Assembly (NCBI GenBank): GCA_040769125.1
Contig: JAXGLO010000001.1
Coordinates: 807,537-871,536, forward strand
Direction: 5' to 3'
Length of the DNA stretch: 64,000 nt
DNA from: Thermoleophilia bacterium
GTDB lineage: Bacteria; Actinomycetota; Thermoleophilia; UBA2241
The notes under the pieces are model-generated. The model did no database searches and was not told the origin of the DNA. It was given only the letters and a program-made list of their open reading frames with translations. The number at the start of each line of letters is the position of its first letter. The first letter of the stretch is position 1. This document shows, piece after piece, positions 10,963 through 54,242 of this stretch. A program made the position numbers and the translations under genes.

Positions 10963-12030
10963 ATGGGATGGACCAGAGACGGCGACATGACGCCCAAGGA
11001 GCGGGTACACGCCGCGTACCGTTTTGAGGAGGTCGACCGCGTGCCGGTCTTCACCCGTCACGAAGCTATCGCCCGGCGGGCCCTCGGCATCTCCCTGGAG
11101 GAGTGGGCACGCGATGGGGAGCTCTCCGCGAAGGCGCAGATCGCCATGACCGATCTGATCGGCGACGATTGCATCATGGCCTACATCGACAGCTGCGTGG
11201 AGTCCGACGGCTTCGGCCAGCGCACGATCTTCACTCGCGATGAGATGCCATACTCGGATCCGAACCAGTTCGTCATCGAGAGCGTCGACGATTACTACAA
11301 GCTCGAGCCCTTCGACATCGAGACTGCGCCACGCATCATGGAGACGCTGAAGAAGGTCGACGTGCTCGTCGCCGAGCGCGGCGAGACCCACAGCCTCGTG
11401 GGCGAGCCGTACGAGCCCTTCGTGACGCTCGGGAACATGCGTGGCATGCAGCGCCTCCTGGCGGACTGCATCAAGCACCCTGATGCGGTGAAGCATGCTC
11501 TCGATGTCGTCACGGACGTCGAGATCGATTACATGAAGGCCCTCGTGGCGCACGGCTGCGACGTCATCAACATCTGCTGGGACTACGGCAACCCGTCGAT
11601 CATGAGCTCCACTATGTGGATGGAGATGGAGGGCGACTGCATGCGCCGCCTCTACCAGGCGACGCGCGATACGGGCGTCTGGGTGAGCACCCACATGTGC
11701 GATCCGCGTCCCTACATCGACCTGGCTTTCGAGATCGGCAACACTGACACCATCCAGAACTGGGCGATGCCCGAGGGCTGCGCCGACTGGGCGGAGTTCA
11801 AAGAGAAGTACGGTCGCACCTGGAGCATCACCGGCGGCTGGAACCCCGTCGAGCTGAACTACGCGAGCGAGGAGGAGGTCAAGGCCAAGAGCAAGGATCT
11901 CATCCGCGTGCTCGGCGAGGGCAGCGGCCTCGTGCTTGCGCTGGCCTGCGAGTTCCCCTACAACGGCCCGATCATCAACGGTAAGGCCATGGTGGACGCC
12001 TCCCGGGAGATGGCAGCGGAGGGCGCCTGA
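10963..12030 (+). CDS. uroporphyrinogen decarboxylase (URO-D) family protein, MtaA/CmuA-like methyltransferase type (not HemE)
   Basis: About 355 aa. URO-D fold family but lacks the HemE RQAGR motif. GGAGG RBS 8 nt upstream of ATG 10963. The track ORF begins at 10900. Confidence 0.65.
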   Translation: MGWTRDGDMTPKERVHAAYRFEEVDRVPVFTRHEAIARRALGISLEEWARDGELSAKAQIAMTDLIGDDCIMAYIDSCVESDGFGQRTIFTRDEMPYSDPNQFVIESVDDYYKLEPFDIETAPRIMETLKKVDVLVAERGETHSLVGEPYEPFVTLGNMRGMQRLLADCIKHPDAVKHALDVVTDVEIDYMKALVAHGCDVINICWDYGNPSIMSSTMWMEMEGDCMRRLYQATRDTGVWVSTHMCDPRPYIDLAFEIGNTDTIQNWAMPEGCADWAEFKEKYGRTWSITGGWNPVELNYASEEEVKAKSKDLIRVLGEGSGLVLALACEFPYNGPIINGKAMVDASREMAAEGA

Positions 12031-12340
12031 GGGCGAAAGATGAGATGAGCGATGCGCGCTGCGGGCAGATCACCGCAGCTCTCGTATCGCTCGACGGTGA
12101 GGGGACCGAGGCGCTCACCGGCGAGGCTCTCGAGGAGGGCCGCGACTCACCGGGCTGAGCGCCGGGTTCCCTGCCGGCCACCGCGGTCGGAGCGGCTCCT
12201 TCCTTCTTCCTGCGAGCCTTGCGTCGAAGCGTGCCGAGTGGTAATCATGGGTTGACACGGCTCCTCGGCGCTCGACCGAGACCGCGCCTCGTCGCCCGAT
12301 CGAGACAGGGAGCACCTGCAACCGAGAGAAAGGACTGCCG

Positions 12341-14773
12341 GTGAACCCCAAGCCCACAGGGCGCAGCGCCCGCCGTCCCACAGGGCCCAGCGCCTGCCGT
12401 CTGCCGTTGCTGGCCCTCTCCTGCTTTCTGCTGCTGCTCATCGCCGCCTCGCCGGCCGCCGCCGCCACCGCTGCCAGCTGGAGCTGGCAGAACCCACTGC
12501 CGCAAGGGAACAGCCTCTTCGCCGTCACCTGCGCCGACGCATCCCACGCCTTCGCGGTCGGAGATGCGGGCACGATCCTCGCGACCACCGACGGCGGCAC
12601 GACCTGGACGGAGCAGAGCTCGGGGACGGCGAAGGACCTCTTCGCCGTCACCTGCGCCGACGCATCCCACGCCTTCGCGGTCGGAGACGACGGCATCATC
12701 TTCGCGACCACCGACGGCGGCACGACCTGGACGCCGCAGAGCTCTGGGGCGACGAAGGACCTTAACGCCGTCACCTGCGCCGACGCATCCCACGCCTTCG
12801 CGGTCGGAGACGACGGCATCATCTTCGCGACCGTTAATGGCGGCACGACCTGGACGCCGCAGAACTCGGGAACGACGAATGACCTCTACGCCGTCACCTG
12901 CGCCGACGAGTATCACGCCTTCGCGGTCGGAGACTTCGGCACGATCCTCGCGACCACCGACGGCGGCACGACCTGGACGGAGCAGAGCTCGGGAGCGACG
13001 AAGGACCTCTATTCCGTCACCTGCGCCGACTCATCCCACGCCTTTGCGGTCGGAGACCACGGCACCATCCTTGCGACCACTAACGGCGGCACGACCTGGA
13101 TGCCGCAGAACTCGGGAACGACGGAGTACTTCCGCTCCGTCACCTGCGCCGACTCATCCTACGCCTTCGCGGTCGGAGACTTCGGCACGATCCTCGCGAC
13201 CACCGACGGCGGCGAGGCCTGGACGCCGCAGAGCTCGGGAGTGACGAATGACCTCTACGCCGTCACCTGCGCCGACTCATCCCACGCCTTCGCGGTCGGA
13301 GACTACGGCACCATCTCAGCGACCACCGACGGCGGCGAGGCCTGGACGCCGCAGAGCTCGGGAGCGACGAATGACCTCAACGCCGTCACCTGCGCCGACT
13401 CATCCCACGCCTTCGCGGTCGGACGTGGCGGCACAATTCTCGCGACCACCAACGGCGGTACGACCTGGACGCCGCAGAGTTCGGGAGTGACGAATGACCT
13501 CAACGCCGTCACCTGCGCCGACTCATCCCACGCCTTCGCGGTCGGACGTGGCGGCACAATTCTCGCGACCACCAACGGCGGTACGACCTGGACGCCGCAG
13601 AGTTCGGGAGTGACGAATGACCTCAACGCCGTCACCTGCGCCGACTCATCCCACGCCTTCGCGGTCGGACGTGGCGGCACAATTCTCGCGACCACCAACG
13701 GCGGTACGACCTGGACGCCGCAGAGTTCGGGAGTGACGAATGACCTCAACGCCGTCACCTGCGCCGACTCATCCCACGCCTTCGCGGTCGGACGTGGCGG
13801 CACAATTCTCGCGACCACCAACGGCGGTACGACCTGGACGCCGCAGAGTTCGGGAGTGACGAATGACCTCAACGCCGTCACCTGCGCCGACTCATCCCAC
13901 GCCTTCGCGGTCGGAGACTACGGCACCATCCTTGCGACCACTAACGGCGGCACGACCTGGACGCCGCAGAGCCTGGAGGGGGCAGGTCGCCTGACCGGCG
14001 TCGTCTGCGCCGACCCATCCCACGTCTTTGCAGTCGGATCTGATCGGCATGGCGCCGCCACGATCCTCGCGACCACCGACGGCGGCGAGACTTGGGAAGC
14101 GCAGAACTTGGGAACGGCGAATGACCTCGCTGCCGTCACCTGCGTCGACGCCTGGACTCTCTGGATGGTCGGAGACGGCGGCACCATCCTGGCGAAGGCG
14201 CCTCTGACCAGCGCCTCGACCTACCGCTTCGCCAGGACCCCCAAGGTCCGCTGGAGGAGAACCGACCAGACGGTCAAGTTCACTGCCCGGGGCGGCACCG
14301 CTCTCCGCAAGATCCACTACTCCCTGAACGGCGGTAAGACCTGGACGGCCGTCGACGGCGATACCGCCTCGGTGCGCATCAAGAGAGCCGGCTCCTACCG
14401 GGTGCAGTTCTACGCCAGCGACGAGCTCGGCAGAGAGGCGACCCACAAGCCCGGCTTCGTCAACATCGACAAGGACAAGCCGACGACCAGGGCGTACAAG
14501 GCGTCGGTCCGGCGCGGCAAGGTCGTCAGGCTACGCTACCGGGTGAGTGACGCCCTGCCCAGCTCAGGCTCCGCCCGCTGCGTCCTGCAGATCCGCAAGG
14601 GCAAGAAGACGGTGCGCTCGATCAGGCTCGGCACAAAGCGCGTCAACACCGCCCTTACCTACCGCTACCGCGCCCGCCTGGCCAAGGGCCGCTACACCTG
14701 GCGGGTGACCGCCACCGACCTGGCCGGCAACCGGGCCAGCAGGATCAGGGCGGCGAGCCTGCGGGTGAGGTGA
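12341..14773 (+). CDS. secreted BNR/Ycf48-like beta-propeller repeat protein, paralog 1 (about 14 blades plus conserved C-terminal domain)
   Basis: GTG start after AAAGGA RBS. Signal peptide ...LPLLALSCFLLLLIAASPAAAA. Repeated 41-aa blades of form W.Q..G.T..L..V.CAD..HAFAVGD.GTILATTDGGTTW (BNR motif T-x-D-G-G-x-T-W). Lys/Arg-rich C-terminal domain of about 190 aa shared with paralogs 2 and 3. Confidence 0.85.
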   Translation: MNPKPTGRSARRPTGPSACRLPLLALSCFLLLLIAASPAAAATAASWSWQNPLPQGNSLFAVTCADASHAFAVGDAGTILATTDGGTTWTEQSSGTAKDLFAVTCADASHAFAVGDDGIIFATTDGGTTWTPQSSGATKDLNAVTCADASHAFAVGDDGIIFATVNGGTTWTPQNSGTTNDLYAVTCADEYHAFAVGDFGTILATTDGGTTWTEQSSGATKDLYSVTCADSSHAFAVGDHGTILATTNGGTTWMPQNSGTTEYFRSVTCADSSYAFAVGDFGTILATTDGGEAWTPQSSGVTNDLYAVTCADSSHAFAVGDYGTISATTDGGEAWTPQSSGATNDLNAVTCADSSHAFAVGRGGTILATTNGGTTWTPQSSGVTNDLNAVTCADSSHAFAVGRGGTILATTNGGTTWTPQSSGVTNDLNAVTCADSSHAFAVGRGGTILATTNGGTTWTPQSSGVTNDLNAVTCADSSHAFAVGRGGTILATTNGGTTWTPQSSGVTNDLNAVTCADSSHAFAVGDYGTILATTNGGTTWTPQSLEGAGRLTGVVCADPSHVFAVGSDRHGAATILATTDGGETWEAQNLGTANDLAAVTCVDAWTLWMVGDGGTILAKAPLTSASTYRFARTPKVRWRRTDQTVKFTARGGTALRKIHYSLNGGKTWTAVDGDTASVRIKRAGSYRVQFYASDELGREATHKPGFVNIDKDKPTTRAYKASVRRGKVVRLRYRVSDALPSSGSARCVLQIRKGKKTVRSIRLGTKRVNTALTYRYRARLAKGRYTWRVTATDLAGNRASRIRAASLRVR
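13370..13900 (+). repeat. Intragenic perfect tandem repeat, 123-nt unit (one blade: TNDLNAVTCADSSHAFAVGRGGTILATTNGGTTWTPQSSGV), about 4.3 copies
   Basis: Identical 41-aa blocks x4 in the paralog-1 translation. The antisense ORF 13303..13881 shows the same 41-aa period. Confidence 0.8.
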
Positions 14774-14864
14774 AAGATCACTGCGGCAAACCTGGCTGTG
14801 TGAGGTGAGCCGCCTCCGGCAGGGCTGGCTGAAGCGTTCTGCAGCATGCCCGGCCTCTCAATAG

Positions 14865-14908
14865 CGGGCCGCCCTTCCTCTTGCGAGGGGGCGGCCCGCC
14901 GCTTTTCT
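14865..14908 (+). terminator. intrinsic terminator after paralog 1
   Basis: GCGGGCCGCCC-TTCCTCTTGCGA-GGGGGCGGCCCGC hairpin followed by CGCTTTTCTG. The same hairpin recurs after paralogs 2 and 3. Confidence 0.6.
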
Positions 14909-15217
14909 GCGTGGCCGGCTCGCGCTTTCTCTTCCGCAGAGCGGCCCGCCGCCTCCCTTGCGTGTCGGCTCGTCGCTGCTCTCTACCGTCGGCAAGCCCG
15001 TCGCGTTGCCGGGCAAAGCAAACGCCGCCCCGGTGCGGGGCAGCCTATTTCTCTCTCCCTGCTCCCGCTAATAACACTCGACTCACGCCTGCGAGCCTTG
15101 CTCCAGAGCGAGCGGAGTGGTAATCATGAGCCGACACTACACTTCGTCGCCTGATCAACACTACGCCCCGTCGCCTGATCGAGGCGGGTACCTGTAACCG
15201 ACCAGAAAGGATTGCCG

Positions 15218-17683
15218 GTGAACCTCAAACCCATGGGGCTCAGCGCTCGCCATCTGCCGCTGCTGGCCCTCTCCTGCCTGTTGCTGCTGCTCATCGCTGC
15301 CGCGCCGGCGGCAGCCGCTGGCGCCGGCTGGAGGTGGCAGAACCCGCGGCCGCAGGGGAACACCCTCAACGGTGTCGCCGGCGCTGACGCAGAACACGCC
15401 TTCGCGGTCGGCATCTTCGGCACCATCCTCGCGACCACCGACGGCGGCCAGAACTGGACGGCACAGAACCCGGGGACGGATGAGCGCCTCAACGCCGTCG
15501 CCTGCACCGACGCAGAGCACGCCATCGCGGTGGGAGAGGGCGGCATGATCCTGGCGACCGGCAACGGGGGCACGAGCTGGGCGCCCCAGACCTCGGGGAC
15601 GACGAACCCCCTCTACGGCATTAGCTTCTCCAGCCCAAGCCACGGCTGGGCGGTCGGATTTGGCGGTACGATCCTCGCGACCACCGACGGCGGCGCGACC
15701 TGGAGGCCGCAGACTTCAGGGACGAAGAGTTCCCTCTATGGCGTCACCTGCACCAGTGCAAACCACGCTTGCGCGGTCGGCTACAACTTGACCAAGGATC
15801 GCGCCATCATCCTCGTGACCGACGACGGCGGCGCGACCTGGACGGTGAAGGACTTGGAGTGGAAGGGCCACCTCAACGGCGTCACCTTCTCCAGCCCAAG
15901 CCACGGCTGGGCGGTCGGATTCAATGAATGGCAGGATCGCGGCGCCATCCTCGTGACCGACGACGGCGGCGCGACCTGGACGGCGCAGGCCTCGGGGACG
16001 ACGATGGATCTCTCCGGCGTCACCTGCACCGACGCAAGCAACGTCTACGCGGTCGGATTCAGCCCAGACACAAATCGCGGCGTCATCCTCGTGACTACCG
16101 ACGGCGGCACGACCTGGGAGACGAAGGACTCGGGGAAGACGGATTCGCTCTTCGGCGTCACCCTCGCCGGCGAGTCCGGCGCCTTCGCGGTCGGGCGTGA
16201 CGGCACGATCTTCGCGACCACCGACAGCGGCGCGACCTGGGTGGAGCAGAGCTCGGGGACGACGGACAGCCTCGCCGACGTCGCCTGCACCGACGCCAAT
16301 AATGCCTTTGCGGTCGGATACGACTGGTTGGTGGATAGCAGCACCATCGTCGCCACCACGAACGGCGGCACAGAGTGGACGGAACAGGACCCGGGGACGA
16401 CGGGCCCCCTCAACGGCGTCGCCTGCGCCGGCGAATCCGGCGCCTTCGCGGTCGGCGACAACGGCACCGTCCTCGCGACCACCAACGGCGGTGATAACTG
16501 GGCGAAGCAGGACCCGGGGACGACGAAAGACCTCCTCGGTGTGGCCTTCTCCGACTCAGACCGCGGCTGGGCTGTCGGAAACGACGGCACCATCCGCGCA
16601 ACCGTTAACGGCGGCACGGAGTGGACGGAGCAGGACTCGGGGACGACGGCGCACCTCCCCGGCGTTGCCTGCGCCGACGATAATAATGCCTTCGCGGTGG
16701 GCGCTTCGGGCACCATCCTCGCGACCACGGACGGCGGCGCGACCTGGACGGAGCAGGACTCGGGGACGACGGCGAACCTCCTGGACGTCACGTGCGCCGA
16801 CGATAATAATGCCTTCGCGGTGGGCGCCTCGGGCACCATCCTCGCGACCACCAACGGCGGCGCGACCTGGACGGCGCAGACCTCGGGGACGGACGAGCCC
16901 CTCAACGCCGTTGACTGCGCCGACGCAACCCACGCCTTCGCGGTCGGAGAGGGCGGCACCATTCTCGCGACCAGCGACGGCGGCAAGAACTGGACGCAGC
17001 AGAGGTCGAGGACACCGTACGCCCTCTACGGCGTCGCCTGCGCCGACGCAACGCGCGCTTTCGCCGCCGGGGACAGTGGTGCCATCCTGGGGTTCACCGC
17101 TCCCGACACCCCCCTCACTAGCGCCTCGACTTACCGCTTCGCCAAGACCCCCAAGGTCGGCTGGAAGAGAACCAAGCAGACGGTCAAGTTCACCGCCCAG
17201 GGCGGCGAAGCTCCGTACAAGATCCACTACTCCTTGAACGGCGGCAGGACCTGGACGGTCGTCAACGGCGATACCGCCTCGGTGCACATCACGAAAGCCG
17301 GCTCCTACCGGGTGCAGTTCTTCGCCAGCGACGAAGTCGGCAATGAGGTGATCCACAAGCCCGGCTTCGTCAACATCGACACGGCCAAGCCGACGACCAG
17401 GGCGTACAAGGCGTCGGTCCGGCGCGGCAAGGTTGTCAGGCTGCGCTACCGGGTGAACGACGCCCTGCCCAGCTCAGGCTCCGCCCGCTGCGTCCTGCAG
17501 ATCCGCAAGGGCAAGAAGACGGTGCGCTCGATCAGGCTCGACAGAAAGCCCGTCAACACCGCGCTTACCTACCGCTTCCGCGCCCGCCTGGCCAAGGGCC
17601 GCTACACCTGGCGGGTGACCGCCACCGACCTGGCCGGCAACCGGGCCAGCAGGATCACGGCGGCGACCCTGCGGGTGAGGTGA
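15218..17683 (+). CDS. secreted BNR/Ycf48-like beta-propeller repeat protein, paralog 2
   Basis: Same architecture: GTG start in the conserved leader, signal peptide, about 15 divergent blades, conserved C-terminal domain. The track ORF starts at TTG 15212. Confidence 0.85.
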   Translation: MNLKPMGLSARHLPLLALSCLLLLLIAAAPAAAAGAGWRWQNPRPQGNTLNGVAGADAEHAFAVGIFGTILATTDGGQNWTAQNPGTDERLNAVACTDAEHAIAVGEGGMILATGNGGTSWAPQTSGTTNPLYGISFSSPSHGWAVGFGGTILATTDGGATWRPQTSGTKSSLYGVTCTSANHACAVGYNLTKDRAIILVTDDGGATWTVKDLEWKGHLNGVTFSSPSHGWAVGFNEWQDRGAILVTDDGGATWTAQASGTTMDLSGVTCTDASNVYAVGFSPDTNRGVILVTTDGGTTWETKDSGKTDSLFGVTLAGESGAFAVGRDGTIFATTDSGATWVEQSSGTTDSLADVACTDANNAFAVGYDWLVDSSTIVATTNGGTEWTEQDPGTTGPLNGVACAGESGAFAVGDNGTVLATTNGGDNWAKQDPGTTKDLLGVAFSDSDRGWAVGNDGTIRATVNGGTEWTEQDSGTTAHLPGVACADDNNAFAVGASGTILATTDGGATWTEQDSGTTANLLDVTCADDNNAFAVGASGTILATTNGGATWTAQTSGTDEPLNAVDCADATHAFAVGEGGTILATSDGGKNWTQQRSRTPYALYGVACADATRAFAAGDSGAILGFTAPDTPLTSASTYRFAKTPKVGWKRTKQTVKFTAQGGEAPYKIHYSLNGGRTWTVVNGDTASVHITKAGSYRVQFFASDEVGNEVIHKPGFVNIDTAKPTTRAYKASVRRGKVVRLRYRVNDALPSSGSARCVLQIRKGKKTVRSIRLDRKPVNTALTYRFRARLAKGRYTWRVTATDLAGNRASRITAATLRVR

Positions 17684-17740
17684 GCCATCTCCGGCAGCGC
17701 TGACCGAGAGCGCCCTGCCATGTGTCCGGCCTCTCCGCAG

Positions 17741-17805
17741 CGGGCCGCCCTTCCTCTTCGGAGGGGCGGCCCGCCACCCGTCGGAGCGGCCCTTTTCCTC
17801 TCTTT
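17741..17805 (+). terminator. intrinsic terminator after paralog 2
   Basis: CGGGCCGCCC-TTCCTCTTCGGA-GGGGCGGCCCG hairpin, then T-rich tract CCCTTTTCCTCTCTTTC. Confidence 0.5.
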
Positions 17806-17915
17806 CTCCTTGCATGCCTTGCTCTAGAGCGCGCCGAGTGATAATCATGGGTCGATACTGCGTCTCGTCGCTCGATCGAGACGGGAGCATCTGCAACCGA
17901 CAGAAAGGACTGCCG

Positions 17916-20405
17916 GTGAACCTCAAGCCCACCGGGCGCAGCGCCCGCCGCTCCATGGGGCTCAGCGCTCGCCATCTGCCGCTGCTGGCCCTCTTCAGCC
18001 TTCTACTGCTGCTCATCGCAGCTGCGCCGGCCTCCGCCGCCGGCTGGAGCTGGCAGAACCCCCTGCTGCAGGGGAACAACCTCAATGGCGTCGCCTGCGC
18101 CGGCACATCTCACGCCATCGCGGTCGGCGACTACGGCACCATCCTTGCGACCATCGACGGCGGCCAGAACTGGATGCCACAGGCTTCGGGGACGACGAAG
18201 TATCTCACCGCCGTCGCCTGCGCCGGCACATCTCACGCCATCGCGGTCGGAGAGGGTGGCACCATCCTCGTGACCACGAACGGCGGCGCGACCTGGACGA
18301 AGCAGGGTTCAGGGACGACGAGGAATCTCACCGGCATCGCCTGTGTCGATGAACTTCGCGCCATCGCGGTTGGAGACTACGGCACCATTCTCGCCACCAT
18401 CGACGGCGGCAAGAGCTGGACAGACCAGAGTGCGGAGGACATGACGTCGGATCTCTTCGCCGTCACCTGTGCCGACGCACAGCACGCCTTCGCGGTCGGA
18501 TACGACGGCATCATCCTCGTGACCACCAATGGAGGCACGACTTGGGAGAAGCAGGAAGCGGGGGTGATGATGGAGCTCCACGGCATCGCCTGCGCCGATA
18601 CAAGCAACGCCTTCGCGGTCGGATACAATTGCACCACAGAGAAGAGCACCATCCTCGCGACTACCGACGGCGGCGGGAGTTGGGAAGAATACGGCTTGGG
18701 GACGAGGGCTCCCCTCTTTGGCGTCACCTGCGCCGACGAATCCCACGCCTTCGCGGTCGGAGACGACGGCACGATCTTCGCGACCGCCGACGGCGGCGAG
18801 AGCTGGGAAGAACAGACGTCGGGGACGGCGGATTTCCTCTTTGGCGTCACCTGCGCCGACGAATCCCACGCCTTCGCGGTCGGATATGGCGGCACCATCC
18901 TCGCGACCGCCGACGGCGGCACGCATTGGGCGGAATACAGCTCGGGGGTGACGGATACCCTCACCGACGTCACCTGCGCCGACGCAGAGCACGCCTTCGC
19001 GGTCGGATACGATGGCGCCATCGTCGCGACCACGGACGGCGGCACGACCTGGGCGCCGCAGGAGTCGGGGACGGCGGTGCGTCTCAATAGCATCGCCTGC
19101 GCCGACGCATTGCACGCCTTCGCGATCGGATATGACTGGGCCACGACGTTAAAGCCCACCATCCTCACGACCGCCGACGGCGGCACGACCTGGGAGCCGC
19201 AGGACTCGGGGACGGAGGAGTACCTCTCCGATGTCGCCTGCGTCAGCACATCCCATGCCTTCGCGGTCGGATGGGAAGGCACTATCCTCGTGACCACGAA
19301 CGGCGGCACGACCTGGGCGCCGCAGGACTCGGGGACGACGAAGAGCCTCTCCGACGTCGCCTGCGCCGACGCACAGAACGCCTACGCGGTCGGATGGGAC
19401 TACGACACGGATAGCAGCATTATCCTCGCGACCGCCAACGGCGGCCAGAGCTGGACAGAGCAGACCCCGGAGACGACGGCGCGTCTCACCGGCGTCGCCT
19501 GCGCCGACGCAACCCGCGCCTTCGTGGTCGGATACGATCCTGGCGCGAACAAGGGTGTCATCCTCGCGACCACCGATGGCGGCAAGAACTGGACGAAACA
19601 GGACTCGAGGACGACGGAGGGGCTCACCGGCGTCGCCTGCGCTGACGCATTGCACGCCTTCGTGGTCGGACACGACGGCACGATCCTGACGACCAGCGAC
19701 GGCGGCAAGAACTGGACCGCGCAAGCCTCGGGAACCAGAAACAAGCTCAACGCTGTCGCCTGCGCCGACGCAGCCCACGCTTTCGCAGTCGGAGACGGCG
19801 GCACCATTCTGGGGTTCACCGCCCCCGACACCCCCCTCACCAGCGCCTCGACTTATCGCTTCGCCAGGACCCCCAAGGTCGGCTGGAAGAGAACCAACCA
19901 GATAGTGAAGATCACGGCCCAGGGCGGCACCGCCCTCCGCAAGATCCACTACTCCCTGAACGGCGGCAGGACCTGGACGGCCGTCAACGGCGATACCGCC
20001 TCAGTGCGCATCACGAAAGCCGGCTCCTACCGGGTGCAGTTCTACGCCAGCGACGAGCTCGGCAGAGAGGCGACCCACAAGCCCGGCTTCGTCAACATCG
20101 ACAAGGACAAGCCGACGACCAGGGCGTACAAGGCGTCGGTCCGGCGCGGCAAGGTCGTCAGGCTACGCTACCGGGTGAGTGACGCCCTGCCCAGCTCAGG
20201 CTCCGCCCGCTGCGTCCTGCAGATCCGCAAGGGCAAGAAGACGGTGCGCTCGATCAGGCTCAGCAGAAAGCCCGTCAACACCGCGCTCACCTACCGCTAC
20301 CGCGCCCGCCTGGCCAAGGGCAGCTACACCTGGCGGGTGACCGCCACCGACCTGGCCGGCAACCGGGCCAGCAGGATCAGGGCGGCGACCTTGACTGTGA
20401 GGTGA
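17916..20405 (+). CDS. secreted BNR/Ycf48-like beta-propeller repeat protein, paralog 3
   Basis: GTG 17916 in the conserved leader (track ORF extended upstream to 17814). Signal peptide, about 16 blades. C-terminal domain about 95% nt-identical to paralog 1, with runs of more than 200 identical nt. Confidence 0.85.
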   Translation: MNLKPTGRSARRSMGLSARHLPLLALFSLLLLLIAAAPASAAGWSWQNPLLQGNNLNGVACAGTSHAIAVGDYGTILATIDGGQNWMPQASGTTKYLTAVACAGTSHAIAVGEGGTILVTTNGGATWTKQGSGTTRNLTGIACVDELRAIAVGDYGTILATIDGGKSWTDQSAEDMTSDLFAVTCADAQHAFAVGYDGIILVTTNGGTTWEKQEAGVMMELHGIACADTSNAFAVGYNCTTEKSTILATTDGGGSWEEYGLGTRAPLFGVTCADESHAFAVGDDGTIFATADGGESWEEQTSGTADFLFGVTCADESHAFAVGYGGTILATADGGTHWAEYSSGVTDTLTDVTCADAEHAFAVGYDGAIVATTDGGTTWAPQESGTAVRLNSIACADALHAFAIGYDWATTLKPTILTTADGGTTWEPQDSGTEEYLSDVACVSTSHAFAVGWEGTILVTTNGGTTWAPQDSGTTKSLSDVACADAQNAYAVGWDYDTDSSIILATANGGQSWTEQTPETTARLTGVACADATRAFVVGYDPGANKGVILATTDGGKNWTKQDSRTTEGLTGVACADALHAFVVGHDGTILTTSDGGKNWTAQASGTRNKLNAVACADAAHAFAVGDGGTILGFTAPDTPLTSASTYRFARTPKVGWKRTNQIVKITAQGGTALRKIHYSLNGGRTWTAVNGDTASVRITKAGSYRVQFYASDELGREATHKPGFVNIDKDKPTTRAYKASVRRGKVVRLRYRVSDALPSSGSARCVLQIRKGKKTVRSIRLSRKPVNTALTYRYRARLAKGSYTWRVTATDLAGNRASRIRAATLTVR

Positions 20406-20534
20406 GCCGCCTTCGGTGGCGCTGAAGCGCTTCGGCACGCCCTGCTTGAAAGCGTCTCGCCGCATGCCCGGCCTTTCGCGGCGGGCCGCCTCCAGCGGCG
20501 CTGAGGCGCCCTGCCGTATCCCGGCTCTTCACGG

Positions 20535-20577
20535 CGGGCCGCCCTTCCTCTTCCGAGGGGCGGCCCGCCGTTTCTTC
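20535..20577 (+). terminator. intrinsic terminator after paralog 3
   Basis: GGCGGGCCGCCC-TTCCTCTTCCGA-GGGGCGGCCCGCCG followed by TTTCTTCC. Confidence 0.6.
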
Positions 20578-20748
20578 CGCAGGCGGCGGCCCGCCGCTCT
20601 TCGTACTAACACTCCACTCACGTTTGCGAACTATGCGCCAAGGCAATCTGAAATGAATACGGAGTGATTTTTGATACTGGATCGATGATGCGCCTCGTCG
20701 CACGATCCAGACGGGGTGCATCTGCAACCGAGGGGGAAAGGACTGCCG

Positions 20749-23451
20749 GTGAACCCCAAATCCACATCCACAGGGTCCAATGCTCGCTATCCCACGGGGC
20801 CCAATGCCCGCCATCCCACAGGGCTCAGCGCCCGCCACTTGCTGCTGCTGCTGCTGCTGGTCCTCTCCTGCCTTCTCCTGCTGCTCGTCGCCGCCTCGCC
20901 CGCCGCCGCCATCGTCGCCGGCTGGAGCTGGCAGAATCCATTGCCGCAGGGGAATAGCCTCAACGCCGTCGCCTGCGCCGACAAATCCCGTGCCTTCGCG
21001 GTCGGAGATGACGGCACCATCCTCGCGACCGCCGACGGCGGCAAAAGCTGGACGCCGCAGATCTCGGGGACGACGGCGTACCTCACCGCCGTCGCCTGCG
21101 CCGACGAATCTCACGCTTTCGCGGTCGGATACGATAACGACACGTATGAGGGCCTCATCCTCGCGACCAGCAACGGCGGCCAGAGCTGGACGAGGCAGAC
21201 CTCGGGGACGACTCATTACCTCACCGCCGTCACTTGCGTCGACGAATCCCACGTCTTCGCAGTCGGATATGGCGGCACCATCCTCGCGACCAGCAACGGC
21301 GGCCAGAGCTGGACGAGGCAGACCTCGGGGACGATGGACTCCCTCTTCGCCGTCGCCTTCACCGACGCAAGCCACGGCTGGACGGTCGGCTCCTTCGGCA
21401 CCATCCTCGCGACCACCGACGGCGGCGCGAGCTGGACGGAGCAGACCTCGGGGACGATGAAATACCTCACCGCCGTCACCTGTGCCAACGCAACGCGCGC
21501 CTTCGCGGTCGGAGATGAGGGCGCGATCCTGGCGACCACCAACGGCGGCAAGAGCTGGAAGAAGCAGAGCGCGGGAACGACGAGCCCCCTGCGCGCCGTC
21601 ACCTGTGCCAACGCAACGCGCGCCTTCGCGGTCGGAGATGAGGGCACGATCCTGGCGACCACCAACGGCGGCCAGAGCTGGAAGAAGCAAGGCGCGGGAA
21701 CGACGAACTCCCTGCGCGCCGTCGCCTGCGCCGATGCATCTCGCGCCTTCGCGGTCGGATATGGCGGCACGATCCGCGCGACCACCAACGGTGGCAAGAG
21801 CTGGAAGGCGCAGAGTTCGGGGACGACAAGCTCGCTCTACGGTGTCGCCTGCGCCGATGCATCACGCGCCTTCGCGGTCGGAGCCAATGGCACGATCCTG
21901 GCGACCACCAACGGCGGCCAGAGCTGGAAGAAGCAGGGCGCGGGAACGACGAACTCCCTGCGCGCCGTCGCCTGCGCCGATGCATCTCGCGCCTTCGCGG
22001 TCGGATATGGCGGCACGATCCGCGCGACCACCAACGGTGGCAAGAGCTGGAAGGCGCAGAGTTCGGGGACGACAAGCTCGCTCTACGGTGTCGCCTGCGC
22101 CGATGCATCACGCGCCTTCGCGGTCGGAGCCAATGGCACGATCCTGGCGACCACCAACGGCGGCCAGAGCTGGAAGAAGCAGGGCGCGGGAACGACGAAC
22201 TCCCTGCGCGCCGTCGCCTGCGCCGATGCATCTCGCGCCTTCGCGGTCGGATATGGCGGCACGATCCGCGCGACCACCAACGGTGGCAAGAGCTGGAAGG
22301 CGCAGAGTTCGGGGACGACAAGCTCGCTCTACGGTGTCGCCTGCGCCGATGCATCACGCGCCTTCGCGGTCGGAGCCAATGGCACGATCCTGGCGACCAC
22401 CAACGGCGGCCAGAGCTGGAAGAAGCAGGGCGCGGGAACGACGAACTCCCTGCGCGCCGTCGCCTGCGCCGATGCATCTCGCGCCTTCGCGGTCGGATAT
22501 GGCGGCACGATCCGCGCGACCACCAACGGTGGCAAGAGCTGGAAGGCGCAGAGTTCGGGGACGACAAGCTCGCTCTACGGTGTCGCCTGCGCCGATGCAT
22601 CACGCGCCTTCGCGGTCGGAGCCAATGGCACGATCCTGGCGACCACCAACGGCGGCCAGAGCTGGAAGAAGCAGGGCGCGGGAACGACGAACTCCCTGCG
22701 CGCCGTCGCCTGCGCCGATGCATCTCGCGCCTTCGCGGTCGGATATGGCGGCACGATCCGCGCGACCACCAACGGTGGCAAGAGCTGGAAGGCGCAGAGC
22801 TCGGGGACGACGACCTGCCTCTACGGTGTCGCCTGCGCCGATGCATCCCACGCCTTCGCGGTCGGAGATGAGGGCGCGATCCTGGCGACCACCGACGGCG
22901 GCAAGAGCTGGAAGGCGCAGAGCTCGGGGACGACGCATGCCCTCAACGGCATCGCCTGCGTCGACAAATCCCACGCCTTCGCGGTCGGATACGATCGCGA
23001 CACGTATGAGGGCATCATCCTCGCAACCACCGACGGCGGCAAGAGTTGGACCGCGCAGAGCTCGGGGGTGTCGCAAACCCTCTACGGCATCGCCTGCGCC
23101 GACAAAACCCACGCTTTCGCGGTCGGTTATAAGGGCACCATCCTCGCGACCGCGGATGGCGGCAAGAGCTGGACGGCGAAGATCTCGGGGACGATGAACA
23201 CTCTCTACGCCGTCGCCTGCGCCGACGCATCTCACGCCTTCGCCGTCGGGCATGAGGGCACGATCCTGGCGACCACCAATGGCGGCGAGAGCTGGACGGA
23301 GGAGCACTACGCGGTGACGAATAACATCCTCACCGCCGCCACCCGCGCCGACGAATCCCACGCTTTCGCGGTCGGATACGGCGGCATGATCCTGGCGATG
23401 GCCGGCCCGGATGCTCTCACGAGCTCTCCTCGACCGGCAGCCTCGCCGTGA
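20749..23451 (+). CDS. secreted BNR/Ycf48-like beta-propeller repeat protein, paralog 4 (about 20 blades, C-terminal domain missing)
   Basis: GTG 20749 in the conserved leader (track ORF starts at 20716). Signal peptide preceded by a polymorphic-looking LLLLLL tract. Ends ...MILAMAGPDALTSSPRPAASP* without the conserved C-terminal domain. Confidence 0.8.
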   Translation: MNPKSTSTGSNARYPTGPNARHPTGLSARHLLLLLLLVLSCLLLLLVAASPAAAIVAGWSWQNPLPQGNSLNAVACADKSRAFAVGDDGTILATADGGKSWTPQISGTTAYLTAVACADESHAFAVGYDNDTYEGLILATSNGGQSWTRQTSGTTHYLTAVTCVDESHVFAVGYGGTILATSNGGQSWTRQTSGTMDSLFAVAFTDASHGWTVGSFGTILATTDGGASWTEQTSGTMKYLTAVTCANATRAFAVGDEGAILATTNGGKSWKKQSAGTTSPLRAVTCANATRAFAVGDEGTILATTNGGQSWKKQGAGTTNSLRAVACADASRAFAVGYGGTIRATTNGGKSWKAQSSGTTSSLYGVACADASRAFAVGANGTILATTNGGQSWKKQGAGTTNSLRAVACADASRAFAVGYGGTIRATTNGGKSWKAQSSGTTSSLYGVACADASRAFAVGANGTILATTNGGQSWKKQGAGTTNSLRAVACADASRAFAVGYGGTIRATTNGGKSWKAQSSGTTSSLYGVACADASRAFAVGANGTILATTNGGQSWKKQGAGTTNSLRAVACADASRAFAVGYGGTIRATTNGGKSWKAQSSGTTSSLYGVACADASRAFAVGANGTILATTNGGQSWKKQGAGTTNSLRAVACADASRAFAVGYGGTIRATTNGGKSWKAQSSGTTTCLYGVACADASHAFAVGDEGAILATTDGGKSWKAQSSGTTHALNGIACVDKSHAFAVGYDRDTYEGIILATTDGGKSWTAQSSGVSQTLYGIACADKTHAFAVGYKGTILATADGGKSWTAKISGTMNTLYAVACADASHAFAVGHEGTILATTNGGESWTEEHYAVTNNILTAATRADESHAFAVGYGGMILAMAGPDALTSSPRPAASP
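21650..22860 (+). repeat. Intragenic perfect tandem repeat, 246-nt unit (two blades, 82 aa), about 5 copies
   Basis: Four identical antisense ORFs (21837, 22083, 22329, 22575) spaced exactly 246 nt apart. The protein shows TNGGQSWKKQGAGTTNSLRAVACADASRAFAVGYGGTIRATTNGGKSWKAQSSGTTSSLYGVACADASRAFAVGANGTILAT x5. Confidence 0.85.
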
Positions 23452-46513: not shown

Positions 46514-48847
46514 TCAGGAGGCGGGCACGAGCCTCAGCTTCGGGGCGTTCAGCGAGGCAACGATCGTCGGCAGGGCGTGCGCTTCTACGGGGCGTGAGTA
46601 CAGGTAGCCCTGGGCCAGGTCGCAGCCCAGCTCCTGGAGGCGCTTGGCCTGGTCCGCCGTCTCCACGCCTTCTCCTACCGTCATGGTGCTGAGCGCTCGA
46701 GCCATGGCCACGATGGCCGCTACGACGGCATCGTCGGTGTTGTTCGGCTTCTCCAGGTTGCTCACGAAGCCGCGGTCGATCTTGAGGCTCGTTGCCGGGA
46801 ATTGCTTCACGTAGGTCAGCGACGAGTACTCCGTGCCGAAATCGTCGATGGCCATCCGTACGCCCAGCTGCCGCAGCTTCTCGAGGATCGCGGTGGCGGC
46901 CTCGGTGTCCTGCATGAGCGCCGACTCGGTCAGCTCCACACAGAGGAATTCGCCGTCCAGTTCGTGGGTCGCGAGGAGGTCGCTGATCGTCTTGACGATG
47001 TCGTCGTTGTACAGCTGAACGGCGGAGATATTCACCGAGACGAAGAGGTTCGTGAACTCCGGCACCTGGCGTCGCCAGGCGGCGAGCTGCCCGAGGGCCT
47101 CCTCGAGAACCCAGCGGCCGATATCGATGATCGCTCCGCTCTCCTCGGCCAGCGGGATGAACTGTGCCGGCATGATGGTGCCGTGCTGGGGATGCGTCCA
47201 GCGCAGCAGCGCCTCCATGCCGGCCACCGAGGCGATGGGCAGGCTCATGATCGGCTGGTACAGCAGGTGCAGCTGGCCCAGCTCGACGGCGTGGTGCAGA
47301 TCCCTCTCGAGCTCAAGCTCGGTGGCGCGCGCGTGCATCGACTCGTCGAACAGCGCGACGGCGTCGCGGCCAGCCTGCTTGGCATGGTACATGGCGGTGT
47401 CCGCGTTGCGTACGAGGGCCTCGACAGTCGCGTCGGTGTCGTCTCCTGAGGCGAAGGCGAGACCGATACTCGCCGATACGTGGAGCGGCCTGCCGTCGAG
47501 TATGAAGGGCTCTCTGAGGCTGGCGAGGAGCCGTTCCGCAAGATTCAGGGCCTGGGAGACGCTGACGACGTGGCTGAGGATGACGGTGAACTCGTCGCCT
47601 CCGATTCGCGTCACCAGGTCGGTGGGCCGGACGTGGGCGCGGAGCCTCTCGGCGACCTCGATGAGCAGCAGGTCGCCGTAGCGGTGTCCCAGCGTGTCGT
47701 TAACCAGCTTGAAGCGGTCGAGATCCAGGTAGAGAAGCGCCACGTTTGCGTTGTCGATGGTGGGCTCCTTGACGAGGCCCGTGAGGTGCTCCTCCATCCT
47801 GCGGCGGTTCGGCAGGCCTGTGAGGCTGTCGTGGAGCGCCTGGAAGGCGAGCGCCTGCTCGGATCGCTCCGCTATCTGCATCGAGACGATGACGCGCAGG
47901 GTCGTGATGACGGCCATCGCCAGCATCAGCACTGCGAGGACGATCCGGTCGGAGAGGGAGGAGCTGGGGTTGTGAAGTGCAACGATCGTCGGCATGGCAA
48001 GTGCGGCGGCTACCGGGTAGAGGCGTCCTTTTGTGGACTTCGTGCTGCACTCTGAGGAAGCGGGCTCGGTCAGCGTGCGCATCGACGGATGCAGCGCGGT
48101 CGCCGCTGCCGTCACGTACGCGAGACCGTAGGGCAGGCTGACCAAGCTGGCCGGCAGGCTGTTCACCCTCATCTCCTCAAGCATGTAGACGACGTCGCCC
48201 AGGAGCAGGAAGGCTACGGCAGCGACCACCAGCCAGAGTGCCGGTACGCTCCTCCGTGCCGGGTTGAACGCGACCCAGAGCGTCGCCACCAGCAGGAAGA
48301 TCGACGCAGGAGGATACGCGACGAGAACGAGGGCGACTTTCAGCGGGACGTCATGGTGCTGCAGGAACGGCTGGAAGGCGAAGACCCAGATAAGAAGCAT
48401 GAGCGCTAGAGACGCGAGTAGCGAGTCGAGAGCCATGTTCGCGCGACGCTCTTTCCACACTACCCACTGCGAGAACCCCAACAGCCCAAAGGTGAGAAGA
48501 GCGTAGCCCGGGATCGAGAGTGCGTCGGGGAGGAGCGATCGGCTCGCAGACAGGTTACCGAGCGTCTCCAGCTCGCTGCGCGCTGCCCCTCCCATCAGGA
48601 ACATCAGGAGCGCGGCGCTGATGAGCATCCAGTACCTGGCGTGTGGAGGGCGGCGTAGCCAGACCGACACCGCGAGCGCAAGGATGCTCGTAGCCGCGAC
48701 GCCGGCGAACACTGCGTTTCCGAGGTCTCCGAACAGCCCGAAGGATAGGGAGACCATGAGCGAGTAGCCGACTAGAAGGAACGTGACGGTCGGCCCCTGG
48801 CTCTTACCTATCGATTTTATGGCTGCCTGAACTGACCCCATGATCAA
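46514..48847 (-). CDS. membrane sensor diguanylate cyclase/phosphodiesterase (8-TM N-domain plus GGDEF plus EAL), copy 1
   Basis: 777 aa. GGDEF motif RIGGDEF and EAL motif (MEALLRW) both intact. Polytopic MASE-like N-terminal domain. Confidence 0.85.
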   Translation of the reverse strand: MIMGSVQAAIKSIGKSQGPTVTFLLVGYSLMVSLSFGLFGDLGNAVFAGVAATSILALAVSVWLRRPPHARYWMLISAALLMFLMGGAARSELETLGNLSASRSLLPDALSIPGYALLTFGLLGFSQWVVWKERRANMALDSLLASLALMLLIWVFAFQPFLQHHDVPLKVALVLVAYPPASIFLLVATLWVAFNPARRSVPALWLVVAAVAFLLLGDVVYMLEEMRVNSLPASLVSLPYGLAYVTAAATALHPSMRTLTEPASSECSTKSTKGRLYPVAAALAMPTIVALHNPSSSLSDRIVLAVLMLAMAVITTLRVIVSMQIAERSEQALAFQALHDSLTGLPNRRRMEEHLTGLVKEPTIDNANVALLYLDLDRFKLVNDTLGHRYGDLLLIEVAERLRAHVRPTDLVTRIGGDEFTVILSHVVSVSQALNLAERLLASLREPFILDGRPLHVSASIGLAFASGDDTDATVEALVRNADTAMYHAKQAGRDAVALFDESMHARATELELERDLHHAVELGQLHLLYQPIMSLPIASVAGMEALLRWTHPQHGTIMPAQFIPLAEESGAIIDIGRWVLEEALGQLAAWRRQVPEFTNLFVSVNISAVQLYNDDIVKTISDLLATHELDGEFLCVELTESALMQDTEAATAILEKLRQLGVRMAIDDFGTEYSSLTYVKQFPATSLKIDRGFVSNLEKPNNTDDAVVAAIVAMARALSTMTVGEGVETADQAKRLQELGCDLAQGYLYSRPVEAHALPTIVASLNAPKLRLVPAS

Positions 48848-48951
48848 TAGGTATCGGCAGATCGCTGCGATTCTGCACTAATTTCGCCGGATTCTGCGCC
48901 GACGCCCGACGCCGATCTCCCGAAGGCTCAGCGTGCAGCTCCTTCTCGGCT

Positions 48952-49140
48952 GTGGACTGTGAAGCGGGTCAGTCCGGAAGTTCGGCGGCGAGCATCCCGG
49001 CGTGGCGTAACGTCGTCGAGGCTGAGCGGAGGCTGGCGGCCACCGACGCCGACCTGTCTGCCATTCTGGTTTGTGACGAGGCCCTCGAGCCGGCTCTGCG
49101 CGGCGCCGATCTGGTGTGTGCCGAGCGCCTCGTCGGCTGA
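48952..49140 (+). pseudogene. Fossil 3' fragment of the 45713..46483 gene at the unit1/unit2 duplication junction
   Basis: Encodes SAASIPAWRNVVEAERRLAATDADLSAILVCDEALEPALRGADLVCAERLVG*, against SAASIPAWCNVVEAERKLAATDADLHAILVRGEGLEPALRGADLACAERLVG* in the intact gene. A shorter, internally deleted version lies at about 51640..51700. Confidence 0.55.
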
Positions 49141-49170
49141 CGGAGGCGCGCCGCCGCGGGCGAGCAGGGG

Positions 49171-51513: not shown

Positions 51514-51774
51514 CTGTTATCGGCGGATCGCTGCGATTCTGTACTGATTTAGCCTGATTTCACACTGACGCCGGGCGACTACTTACCCGAAGGCTCCGCA
51601 TGCTACTCATTCTCGGCTGCGGACTGCGGAGCAGGTCGGTCCGGAAGCTCCATGGCGAGGGCCTCGAGCCGGCTCTGTGCAGCGTCATCTCGTGAGCGCC
51701 GAACGCCCCGTCGGGTGGCGCAGGCTCGTCGCCGCGGGCGCAGGGCAGGGGGTCAGGCGCGCGTCAGGCAGGGG

Positions 51775-54120: not shown

Positions 54121-54242
54121 ACAATTATCGGCAGATCAGCGCGATTCTGTACTAATTAAATCTGAAGGTGCGCCGACGCCACACGCCTGACGCCCGTTTC
54201 TCGAAGGTTCGGCGTGCGACTTCTGCTCAGATGCGGAGCAGG

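Follow-up and report, generated by a model that had tools for sequence, protein, structure and literature searches.

In the 64,000-nt stretch of DNA analysed here (the window), the sequence repeated upstream of four tandem genes is most probably an ordinary expression region that was co-duplicated with the gene unit to which it belongs. In order, the unit would comprise a promoter-like block, a 5′UTR of ~65–90 nt, AAAGGA, a GTG start, the coding sequence of a secreted BNR-propeller protein and a terminator hairpin, and the entire unit would have been copied four times, head to tail. Fairly recent duplication together with ongoing gene conversion would keep the copies alike, and no special constraint on the leader would be necessary to account for their resemblance. 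Each leader would thus provide an independent yet similar start of transcription and translation for its own gene. Selection may hold only the last 20–33 nt (ribosome-binding site, start codon and surroundings), as in any gene. A sequence-only reading had proposed a special regulatory element; what we find looks essentially like a piece of the duplicated unit, without supporting covariation and without the motif beyond the array.

The array and its upstream regions

Four paralogs encoding secreted BNR/YCF48-like propeller proteins lie in tandem, all on the + strand, with GTG starts at 12341, 15218, 17916 and 20749:

12341..14773, + strand: paralog 1, GTG start, 810 aa
15218..17683, + strand: paralog 2, GTG start, 821 aa
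17916..20405, + strand: paralog 3, GTG start, 829 aa
20749..23451, + strand: paralog 4, GTG start, 900 aa

Paralog 1 has a signal peptide, BNR/YCF48-like propeller blades and then an Ig-like domain at the C-terminus. In paralog 4 the double-blade repeats are expanded and the C-terminal Ig-like domain is missing. Blades of 41 aa make up the propeller genes and are homogenised within each gene, and the signal peptides carry no lipobox. A common protein start, VN(P/L)KP, had been read in all four; this fails for copy 4, which reads VNPKS. The head-to-tail copies are homologous over the coding sequence, on the 5′ side out to about −165 and on the 3′ side as far as the terminator. The last ~550 nt of copies 1–3 are 91–100% identical and the closest pair of copies shifts along the unit, yielding a mosaic of similarity. 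On the basis of these two sequence patterns, we conclude that gene conversion is at work in the array.

The upstream regions are laid out as follows:

12177..12340, + strand: copy 1 upstream region, with promoter-like block, two modules and translation-initiation segment
12210-12258, + strand: copy 1 promoter-like block (CTGCGAGCCTTGC, 13 nt, GAGTGGTAATCAT, GACAC)
12254-12277 and 12278-12301, + strand: copy 1 24-nt modules
12308-12340, + strand: copy 1 initiation segment, AAAGGA at 12329-12334
15089..15217, + strand: copy 2 upstream region, promoter-like block at 15089-15137
15134-15156 and 15158-15180, + strand: copy 2 24-nt modules
15184-15217, + strand: copy 2 initiation segment, AAAGGA at 15206-15211
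17810..17915, + strand: copy 3 upstream region, promoter-like block at 17810-17858
17864-17882, + strand: core of the lone copy 3 24-nt module
17883-17915, + strand: copy 3 initiation segment, AAAGGA at 17904-17909
20624..20748, + strand: copy 4 upstream region, promoter-like block degenerate (TTGCGAACTATGC at 20624, 12-nt insertion, GAGTGAT at 20662, TAATCAT deleted, GATAC at 20673)
20673-20712, + strand: copy 4 modules, ~1.5
20714-20748, + strand: copy 4 initiation segment, AAAGGA at 20737-20742

The elements reported to recur upstream of each gene are real, and far beyond chance. CAyCTGyAACCGA, the AAAGGA ribosome-binding site and GTGAACC are common to all four copies. GAAAGGAYTGCCGGTGAACC has exactly four matches (12328, 15205, 17903 and 20736) where shuffles expect 0, CAYCTGYAACCGA has four in the window, and the CTCGTCGCYCGATCGAGAC module has five, every one within the four leaders. 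Every leader has AAAGGA 6 nt 5′ of a GTG that opens a long ORF, as had been described. The first element (GAGTGrTAATCATG...), however, is found in only three of the four copies and is missing from copy 4; likewise, GAGTGRTAATCATGRGYYGAYAC is restricted to copies 1–3. In this region an insertion adds 12 nt to copy 4 and a deletion takes away the 7 nt TAATCAT, giving a TTGC-to-GAGTG spacing of 25 nt rather than 13 and a GAGTG-to-GAyAC spacing of 11 nt rather than 18. The middle element proves to be a module of 24 nt, present 2, 2, 1 and ~1.5 times in copies 1, 2, 3 and 4. An affinity between this module and a 24-nt repeat coding for part of the signal peptide was unconvincing on comparison by eye. 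Between 0 and 2 additional nucleotides lie next to the ribosome-binding site, depending on the copy. Therefore the leader tolerates indels, in module number, in copy 4 (+12/−7 nt) and beside the ribosome-binding site. The length of the repeat had been put at ~100 nt, whereas similarity starts ~165 nt 5′ of the GTG (~12177 in copy 1). This left edge of copy 1 is where homology to a relative's corrinoid-protein gene stops.

Expression signals

Hairpins resembling terminators follow the first three genes:

14864..14899, + strand: terminator-like hairpin 3′ of paralog 1, −36.8 kcal/mol, z −4.4, then CUUUUCUG
17740..17774, + strand: terminator-like hairpin 3′ of paralog 2, −41.5 kcal/mol, z −4.1
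20534..20568, + strand: terminator-like hairpin 3′ of paralog 3, −41 kcal/mol, z −6.1, then GUUUCUUCC

The tails of these hairpins are only partly U-rich and the terminator scanner left them uncalled. No matching hairpin was found 3′ of paralog 4. As copies 1–3 are each followed by a hairpin and then by a conserved block, each gene looks monocistronic. Moreover, each leader has the preceding gene's terminator hairpin on its 5′ side and its own gene's ribosome-binding site and start on its 3′ side, and therefore needs expression signals of its own. It is almost certain that each leader is a shared promoter and 5′UTR in this plain sense, the interval from terminator to ribosome-binding site, and to that extent the earlier proposal holds; the argument put forward for a special regulatory element does not. 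From its position we infer a promoter at the 12210-12258 block, which would place a transcription start so as to leave a UTR of roughly 65–90 nt. A scan with the sigma-70 consensus, which may not be that of the host, picked out no site among the leaders. Visual inspection shows only a weak sigma-70 match (TTGCGT, 17 nt, TAATCA after TGG) that is absent from copy 4.

We considered two other kinds of signal. Translational coupling via the GTGA start/stop overlap, and likewise a leader peptide, was rejected because no upstream ORF is conserved: the frame closed by the TGA of that overlap possesses a start codon in copy 1 only, and from the ATG at TAATCATGG the length and frame of the ORF differ from copy to copy. 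An epigenetic switch of the Dam/GATC type was also rejected. GATC occurs 6.8 times per kb (436 observed against 190 expected, twice the compositional expectation), and given this abundance one or two per leader are unremarkable.

Divergence of leaders and silent sites

The leader had been described as conserved while the coding regions diverge. This is not borne out, as the coding DNA is 65–79% identical between copies and the leaders 61–81%. Leader Jukes-Cantor distances for the six pairs are 0.36, 0.22, 0.53, 0.38, 0.48 and 0.55, and, taken in the same order, these pairs have NG86 synonymous divergences of 0.30, 0.28, 0.43, 0.30, 0.47 and 0.47. The two ranges (0.22–0.55 and 0.28–0.47) are comparable. 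Invariance across all four copies holds for 28 of 45 columns (62%) of the proximal leader and for 96 of 162 four-fold degenerate sites (59%; P=0.4), although the strong codon bias of a 68% GC genome and the homogenisation of blade repeats within each gene make four-fold sites less than ideal as a neutral reference. Over copies 1–3, 35 of the 50 columns of the promoter-like block are invariant, compared with 67% at four-fold sites (P=0.4). Judged by this sequence comparison, the leader is no better conserved than the silent sites of the paralog genes. Around the ribosome-binding site and start, 19 of 20 nt are invariant (P ~4e-4 before correction for window choice), and over the last 33 leader columns the figure is 76% against 59% (P=0.035). 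These alignments indicate that some constraint exists close to the start codon, where more than ribosome binding could act.

In the propeller region dN/dS is ~0.9, an estimate confounded by repeat homogenisation within each gene. Non-synonymous change almost keeps pace with synonymous change, which is why the proteins look diverged. The leader of these paralogs is thus ordinary by the silent-site comparison, and we would urge that non-coding conservation 5′ of tandem paralogs be set against silent-site divergence before a regulatory RNA is called. Biologically, the propeller genes themselves are more unusual, with their homogenised 41-aa blades and amino acids that appear to change about as fast as silent sites.

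RNA structure

The suggestion of a structured RNA found no support: the leader has no Rfam match, ordinary fold energies, indels and no copy outside the array. Rfam 15 at gathering thresholds gave 0 matches (riboswitches, leaders, thermometers) across the whole window, and at E<=10 over 11900-21000 there were 7 weak matches, none of them within a leader. In none of copies 1–4 did the whole leader fold more stably than dinucleotide-matched shuffles (z-scores −0.55, +0.38, −0.31 and −1.28). Helix architecture is not kept; module number varies and the distal hairpins of each copy lie in different registers. In the consensus fold of the full leader 2 of 23 pairs are changed on both sides, with little power from four near-identical sequences, and both sit in an inter-module helix that copy 3, with its one module, cannot form. 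The sole fold predicted in all four copies is a hairpin at the start codon:

12308..12348, + strand: predicted 12-pair hairpin, GGG..CACC.GCA.CC(loop)GG..UGC.GGUG..CCC
15184-15225, 17883-17923 and 20714-20756, + strand: equivalents in copies 2–4

This predicted hairpin takes the GUG start codon and the GG of AAAGGA into its stem, with minimum free energies of −17, −11.1, −12 and −14.5 kcal/mol in copies 1–4. Over 43 nt its z-scores are −3.3, −0.4, −1.1 and −0.1.

Alternative explanations

It is unlikely, though worth weighing, that the proximal leader (12308-12348 and its equivalents) forms a functional RNA hairpin that damps or gates translation of all four paralogs, opened, e.g., by temperature or a stem-opening factor. 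The 12-pair fold modelled in all copies leaves 97.9% of cells paired, compared with 25–50% when the partner strand is slid, the z-score of copy 1 is low, and the hairpin falls in the best-conserved part of the leader. Of five variable pairs, four differ only by a C or U facing G and so remain paired; a single cell is broken. However, C-to-T is the commonest mutation, and sequences near-identical by descent are expected to share a fold whatever its function. None of the 12 pairs is changed on both sides, in an alignment of four near-identical sequences that has almost no statistical power, and a shuffle control was uninformative at 500/500. Moreover, the z-scores of the other three copies are unremarkable, no thermometer or leader family of Rfam matches at E<=10, and pairing against the ribosome-binding site amounts to two C-G pairs. 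As in ROSE and FourU thermometers and translational leader hairpins, the predicted hairpin is imperfect and pairs part of the ribosome-binding site together with the start codon. Unlike ROSE and FourU, it matches no Rfam model, lacks a U-rich or UYGCU stretch opposite the ribosome-binding site, shows no covariation and in three of the four copies gains no stability over shuffled sequence. If functional, it would be a simple translational brake common to all copies, which is of modest interest. We consider it quite unlikely that the 24-nt modules (core CTCGTCGCyCGATCGAGAC) are instead operators at which a DNA-binding regulator would sit, 3′ of the promoter, and co-regulate the four paralogs. 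The core is a GATC-centred near-palindrome, which in copy 3 becomes a perfect CTCGATCGAG palindrome with GTCTCG/CGAGAC arms; its five occurrences are confined to these leaders, a GATC stands 41–45 nt 5′ of the start in 4 of 4 copies, and a site between promoter-like block and ribosome-binding site fits a roadblock repressor. Elsewhere, however, the palindrome is imperfect or lost (CCTGATCAAC in 2a, CACGATCCAG in 4b), module number varies from 1 to 2 and modules diverge no less than silent sites. GATC is common in this genome at the density given above, no regulator gene adjoins the array and the motif stands upstream of no other gene in the window.

A further reading, which we regard as very improbable, takes the conserved flanks as recombination homology handles (on the 5′ side leader, signal peptide and WSWQNPLPQGN segment, on the 3′ side Ig-like domain and terminator) that would shuffle variable propeller cores into surface variation, in the manner of the mycoplasma vsp/vpma families or the S. 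aureus lpl cluster. The near-identical 3′ ends of copies 1–3, the pairwise mosaic, the dN/dS of the propeller region and the expanding blade repeats, e.g. in copy 4, are in keeping with this. In vpma/vsp, the conserved 5′UTR and signal-peptide regions carry recombination sites (PMC2268961), and the array shares with them a common 5′UTR and signal-peptide coding sequence ahead of repeat-rich mature proteins that differ. Unlike vsp/vpma, with a single promoter, silent copies and both orientations that permit inversion, all genes here lie on the + strand and copies 1–3 each have a promoter-like block, leaving no promoter-swapping logic. The signal peptides have no lipobox, leader identity is far lower, and the host is a high-GC Thermoleophilia-like actinobacterium rather than a mycoplasma. 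No site-specific recombinase adjoins the array; a scan of ORFs throughout the window (small ORFs in part) showed neither recombinase nor integrase domains, and no recombinase was found among the window's annotated genes. [quoted passage not shown] Here, too, tandem paralogs of exported proteins share one orientation, with homology running from the 3′ part of an ORF through the intergenic region to the next 5′ part and a mosaic of similarity pointing to recombination or gene conversion. Unlike lpl, where the conserved recombination site is central, it is the gene ends that are conserved and the central 41-aa blade array that varies, and from the single genome available here the history of rearrangement is not reconstructable. 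Against the handles, moreover, a leader 61–81% identical and interrupted by indels is a poor substrate for homologous recombination, and homogenisation of repeats within genes clouds the dN/dS value. Just as improbable is a combined form, in which an uncultured Thermoleophilia-like actinobacterium would possess a surface-protein diversification array with both recombination handles and a common hairpin gate over the ribosome-binding site and start. Were it true, the repeat would be part of a system of variation and expression control, not a passive by-product of duplication.

Occurrence elsewhere and genomic context

In favour of simple co-duplication, the leader motif occurs in the window only at the four genes. 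An exact 20-mer had 3 matches in genome_contigs, 14 in metagenome_contigs and 0 in viral_contigs; every external match was isolated, without flanking similarity to the leader, and most were apparently within other genes. A blastn search of plasmids with the leader returned no match. The best full-length protein matches were <=50% identical and in unrelated contexts, and the C-terminal domain alone retrieved one distant match. Searches by protein, by C-terminal domain and by neighbouring gene found no orthologous array with which to compare the leader. The array adjoins a truncated corrinoid-protein gene; in a relative, the 89%-identical neighbour gene has genes for an uninterrupted corrinoid protein and a permease after it, and the array is absent. 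The truncated gene marks a recent rearrangement beside the array. Lastly, a second and unrelated tandem family is present in the window: three GGDEF-EAL genes (46514-54120, minus strand) have ~200 nt of upstream sequence in common. As these genes likewise share their upstream DNA, co-duplicated upstream regions are a general trait of this genome.

Arrangement of the tandem array

The four BNR-propeller paralogs are arranged head-to-tail, and each opens at a conserved GTG start:

12341-14773, + strand, paralog 1
15218-17683, + strand, paralog 2
17916-20405, + strand, paralog 3
20749-23451, + strand, paralog 4

Outside the array, the window carries housekeeping genes (heme synthesis, cobalt transport, glycolysis, class-II DAHP synthase, MMPL, CarD). 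The top homologue of the gene upstream of the array comes from a Thermoleophilia MAG, which marks the source as a Thermoleophilia-like actinobacterium of high GC content (68%). Every N-terminus has a basic stretch and a hydrophobic signal sequence followed by a WSWQNPLPQGN segment, and all four products are secreted proteins. Each paralog carries 12-20 BNR/Asp-box blades of 41 aa, matching Pfam PSII_BNR/YCF48 and Sortilin-Vps10. Paralogs 1-3 have an Ig-like C-terminal domain; paralog 4 lacks it and has a differing end at 23451. Where the signal peptide is basic, towards its N-terminus, the coding sequence contains a 24-nt repeat (PTGxSARx) that occurs 2, 1, 2 and 3 times in paralogs 1 to 4, respectively (12353-12401, 15230-15253, 17928-17975, 20768-20837). 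The leaders, the repeated stretches before each GTG, contain a 24-nt module of the same period, but no convincing sequence similarity was seen between the two.

Elements of the leader

The recurrence of the leader elements, on which the sequence-only reading was built, is real and beyond expectation: GAAAGGAYTGCCGGTGAACC occurs exactly 4 times in the window (expected 0), CAYCTGYAACCGA 4 times and the CTCGTCGCYCGATCGAGAC core 5 times, every one within leaders. The AAAGGA RBS and GTG start were likewise seen as described, 6 nt apart ahead of the long ORF in 4/4 copies. Three details nevertheless required correction. The first element (GAGTGrTAATCATG..GAyAC), thought to be in all four leaders, is found in copies 1-3 only, the copy 4 leader having a 12-nt insertion ahead of GAGTG and a 7-nt deletion removing TAATCAT. 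The middle element recurs, but is actually a 24-nt tandem module with copy numbers of 2, 2, 1 and ~1.5 in copies 1-4. Lastly, similarity reaches back ~165 nt from the start codon rather than ~100 nt.

A very stable hairpin, GCGGGCCGCCC...GGGCGGCCCGC, with a partly U-rich tail lies about 90-130 nt past the stop codons of copies 1-3 (-37 to -41 kcal/mol, z -4 to -6); paralog 4 is without a downstream terminator hairpin. After the hairpin come a promoter-like block (CTGCGAGCCTTGC, 13 nt, GAGTGGTAATCAT, 5 nt, GAyAC), the 24-nt module(s) and the initiation segment GGGAGCAyCUGCAACCGA..GAAAGGACUGCCGGUG, an order that makes every paralog look like an independent transcription unit. This layout fits the shared promoter and 5'UTR proposed earlier, and the leader would comprise promoter, 5'UTR and translation-initiation region; the promoter part is placed by position, because no site scored in a sigma-70 consensus scan of the leaders. 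A leader peptide was rejected, as a conserved upstream ORF was not found in the leaders, and so were the module GATC sites as a special signal, since GATC is frequent across the window and hence unremarkable. Between paralogs 1 and 2 lies ~150 nt of extra sequence (14900-15060) that has no counterpart in the other spacers and includes further GC-rich hairpins, e.g. 15024-15044.

Leader conservation compared with silent sites

The leaders had been taken to be conserved while the coding regions diverge. This inference of excess conservation is wrong. Pairwise Jukes-Cantor distances between the 160-nt upstream regions (0.22-0.55) match coding synonymous divergence for the same pairs (0.28-0.47) and have the same rank order, and DNA identities overlap (61-81% for leaders, 65-79% for coding regions). 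Of the 45 leader columns nearest the start, 62% are invariant across the four copies, and four-fold degenerate sites reach 59% (P=0.4). For copies 1-3, the promoter-like block has 35/50 invariant columns vs 67% at four-fold sites (P=0.4). Only 20-33 nt around the RBS and start stand out, with 19/20 positions invariant (uncorrected P ~4e-4), or 25/33 columns for a wider start-proximal stretch (P=0.035), a constraint that is usual for a translation-initiation region.

The impression of diverging coding regions stems from the protein level. Identity among the paralog proteins is only 50-67%, since non-synonymous substitutions are almost as common as synonymous ones: invariance at codon positions 1, 2 and 3 is 54%, 53% and 54%, and pairwise dN/dS is 0.87-0.99, a range to be read with the caveat that within-gene blade homogenisation makes the counted substitutions non-independent events. 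These values suggest that the propeller is under diversifying selection or under relaxed constraint, although the estimate is confounded by that homogenisation.

A structured RNA or a co-duplicated expression region

The suggestion that the leader is a structured RNA is unsupported. An Rfam search gave no match in the leaders, whole-leader folds were no more stable than shuffled sequence, and the distal hairpins pair differently from copy to copy; module number also varies. The sole structure common to 4/4 copies is a predicted imperfect hairpin of 12 pairs, in which the GG of the RBS and the GUG start are both base-paired, with 97.9% of cells paired and one cell broken. The four pairs that vary do so only by C/U opposite G, 0 pairs are changed on both sides, and stability exceeds that of shuffles in copy 1 only. 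Because the four sequences are nearly identical by descent, the shared fold speaks neither for nor against a function, which we regard as unlikely.

Rather, the leaders are most probably the promoter, 5'UTR and RBS that were duplicated along with the genes of a young tandem array, among whose copies gene conversion still acts. The last ~550 nt of copies 1-3, encoding the Ig-like domain (14200-14773, 17110-17683, 19830-20405), are 91-100% identical, which indicates a recent gene-conversion tract. Moreover, the closest pair shifts along the unit: in the leader, copy 1 is nearest to copy 3, and over the first 100 codons to copy 4. Together with the near-identical 3' ends, this shows active conversion in the array. 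Conversion and fairly recent duplication are enough to explain leader similarity. The coding regions themselves are tandem 123-nt (41-aa) blade repeats (12520-14149, 15364-17051, 18081-19807, 20958-23398), with 11.8 units that are 90% alike in copy 1 and, in copy 4, a 246-nt double blade repeated 8.6 times, five of these repeats being near-perfect. Such a pattern indicates that the blades of each gene have been strongly homogenised and have expanded.

Origin of the array and similar systems

Directly after the URO-D-like methyltransferase gene, window 12045-12176 holds a corrinoid (B12-binding) gene remnant of the first 37 codons only. In a relative, an 89%-identical methyltransferase is followed by an intact 215-aa corrinoid protein, to whose start the remnant is 65% identical, and a permease; the array is absent. 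Homology to the relative stops at ~12175, and that of copy 1 to the other paralogs' upstream regions starts at ~12177. From this coincidence the array would seem to have arisen by an insertion or rearrangement specific to this lineage, and the remnant looks like its left junction, where the corrinoid gene would have been destroyed. Barring read-through transcription from the upstream operon, the copy 1 expression region would be limited to ~165 nt.

The leader motif is absent elsewhere in the window. Exact 20-mer matches were found at 3 loci in species-representative genomes and 14 in metagenomes, with none in viral contigs; all of these are isolated, without flanking leader similarity, and most are apparently within other genes. 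Blastn of the leader vs plasmids gave no match. Database searches gave no close orthologues of the paralog proteins (full-length identity <=50%), and the C-terminal domain alone retrieved a single distant match. Exact-sequence look-ups of the window's proteins likewise came back empty.

The nearest described case is the S. aureus lpl cluster of tandem paralogs, where, as here, the evolutionary unit includes the intergenic region (PMC2568036). Mycoplasma vsp/vpma families have conserved 5'UTRs and signal-peptide regions that carry recombination sites (PMC2268961), but the likeness is superficial, the BNR array having no adjacent recombinase among the ORFs scanned across the window, no mixed orientation and no single shared promoter. 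Within the window, a second tandem family of three GGDEF-EAL genes (777-781 aa; 46514-54120, minus strand) has ~200 nt of upstream sequence in common and is a second case of co-duplicated upstream regions (46514-54300).
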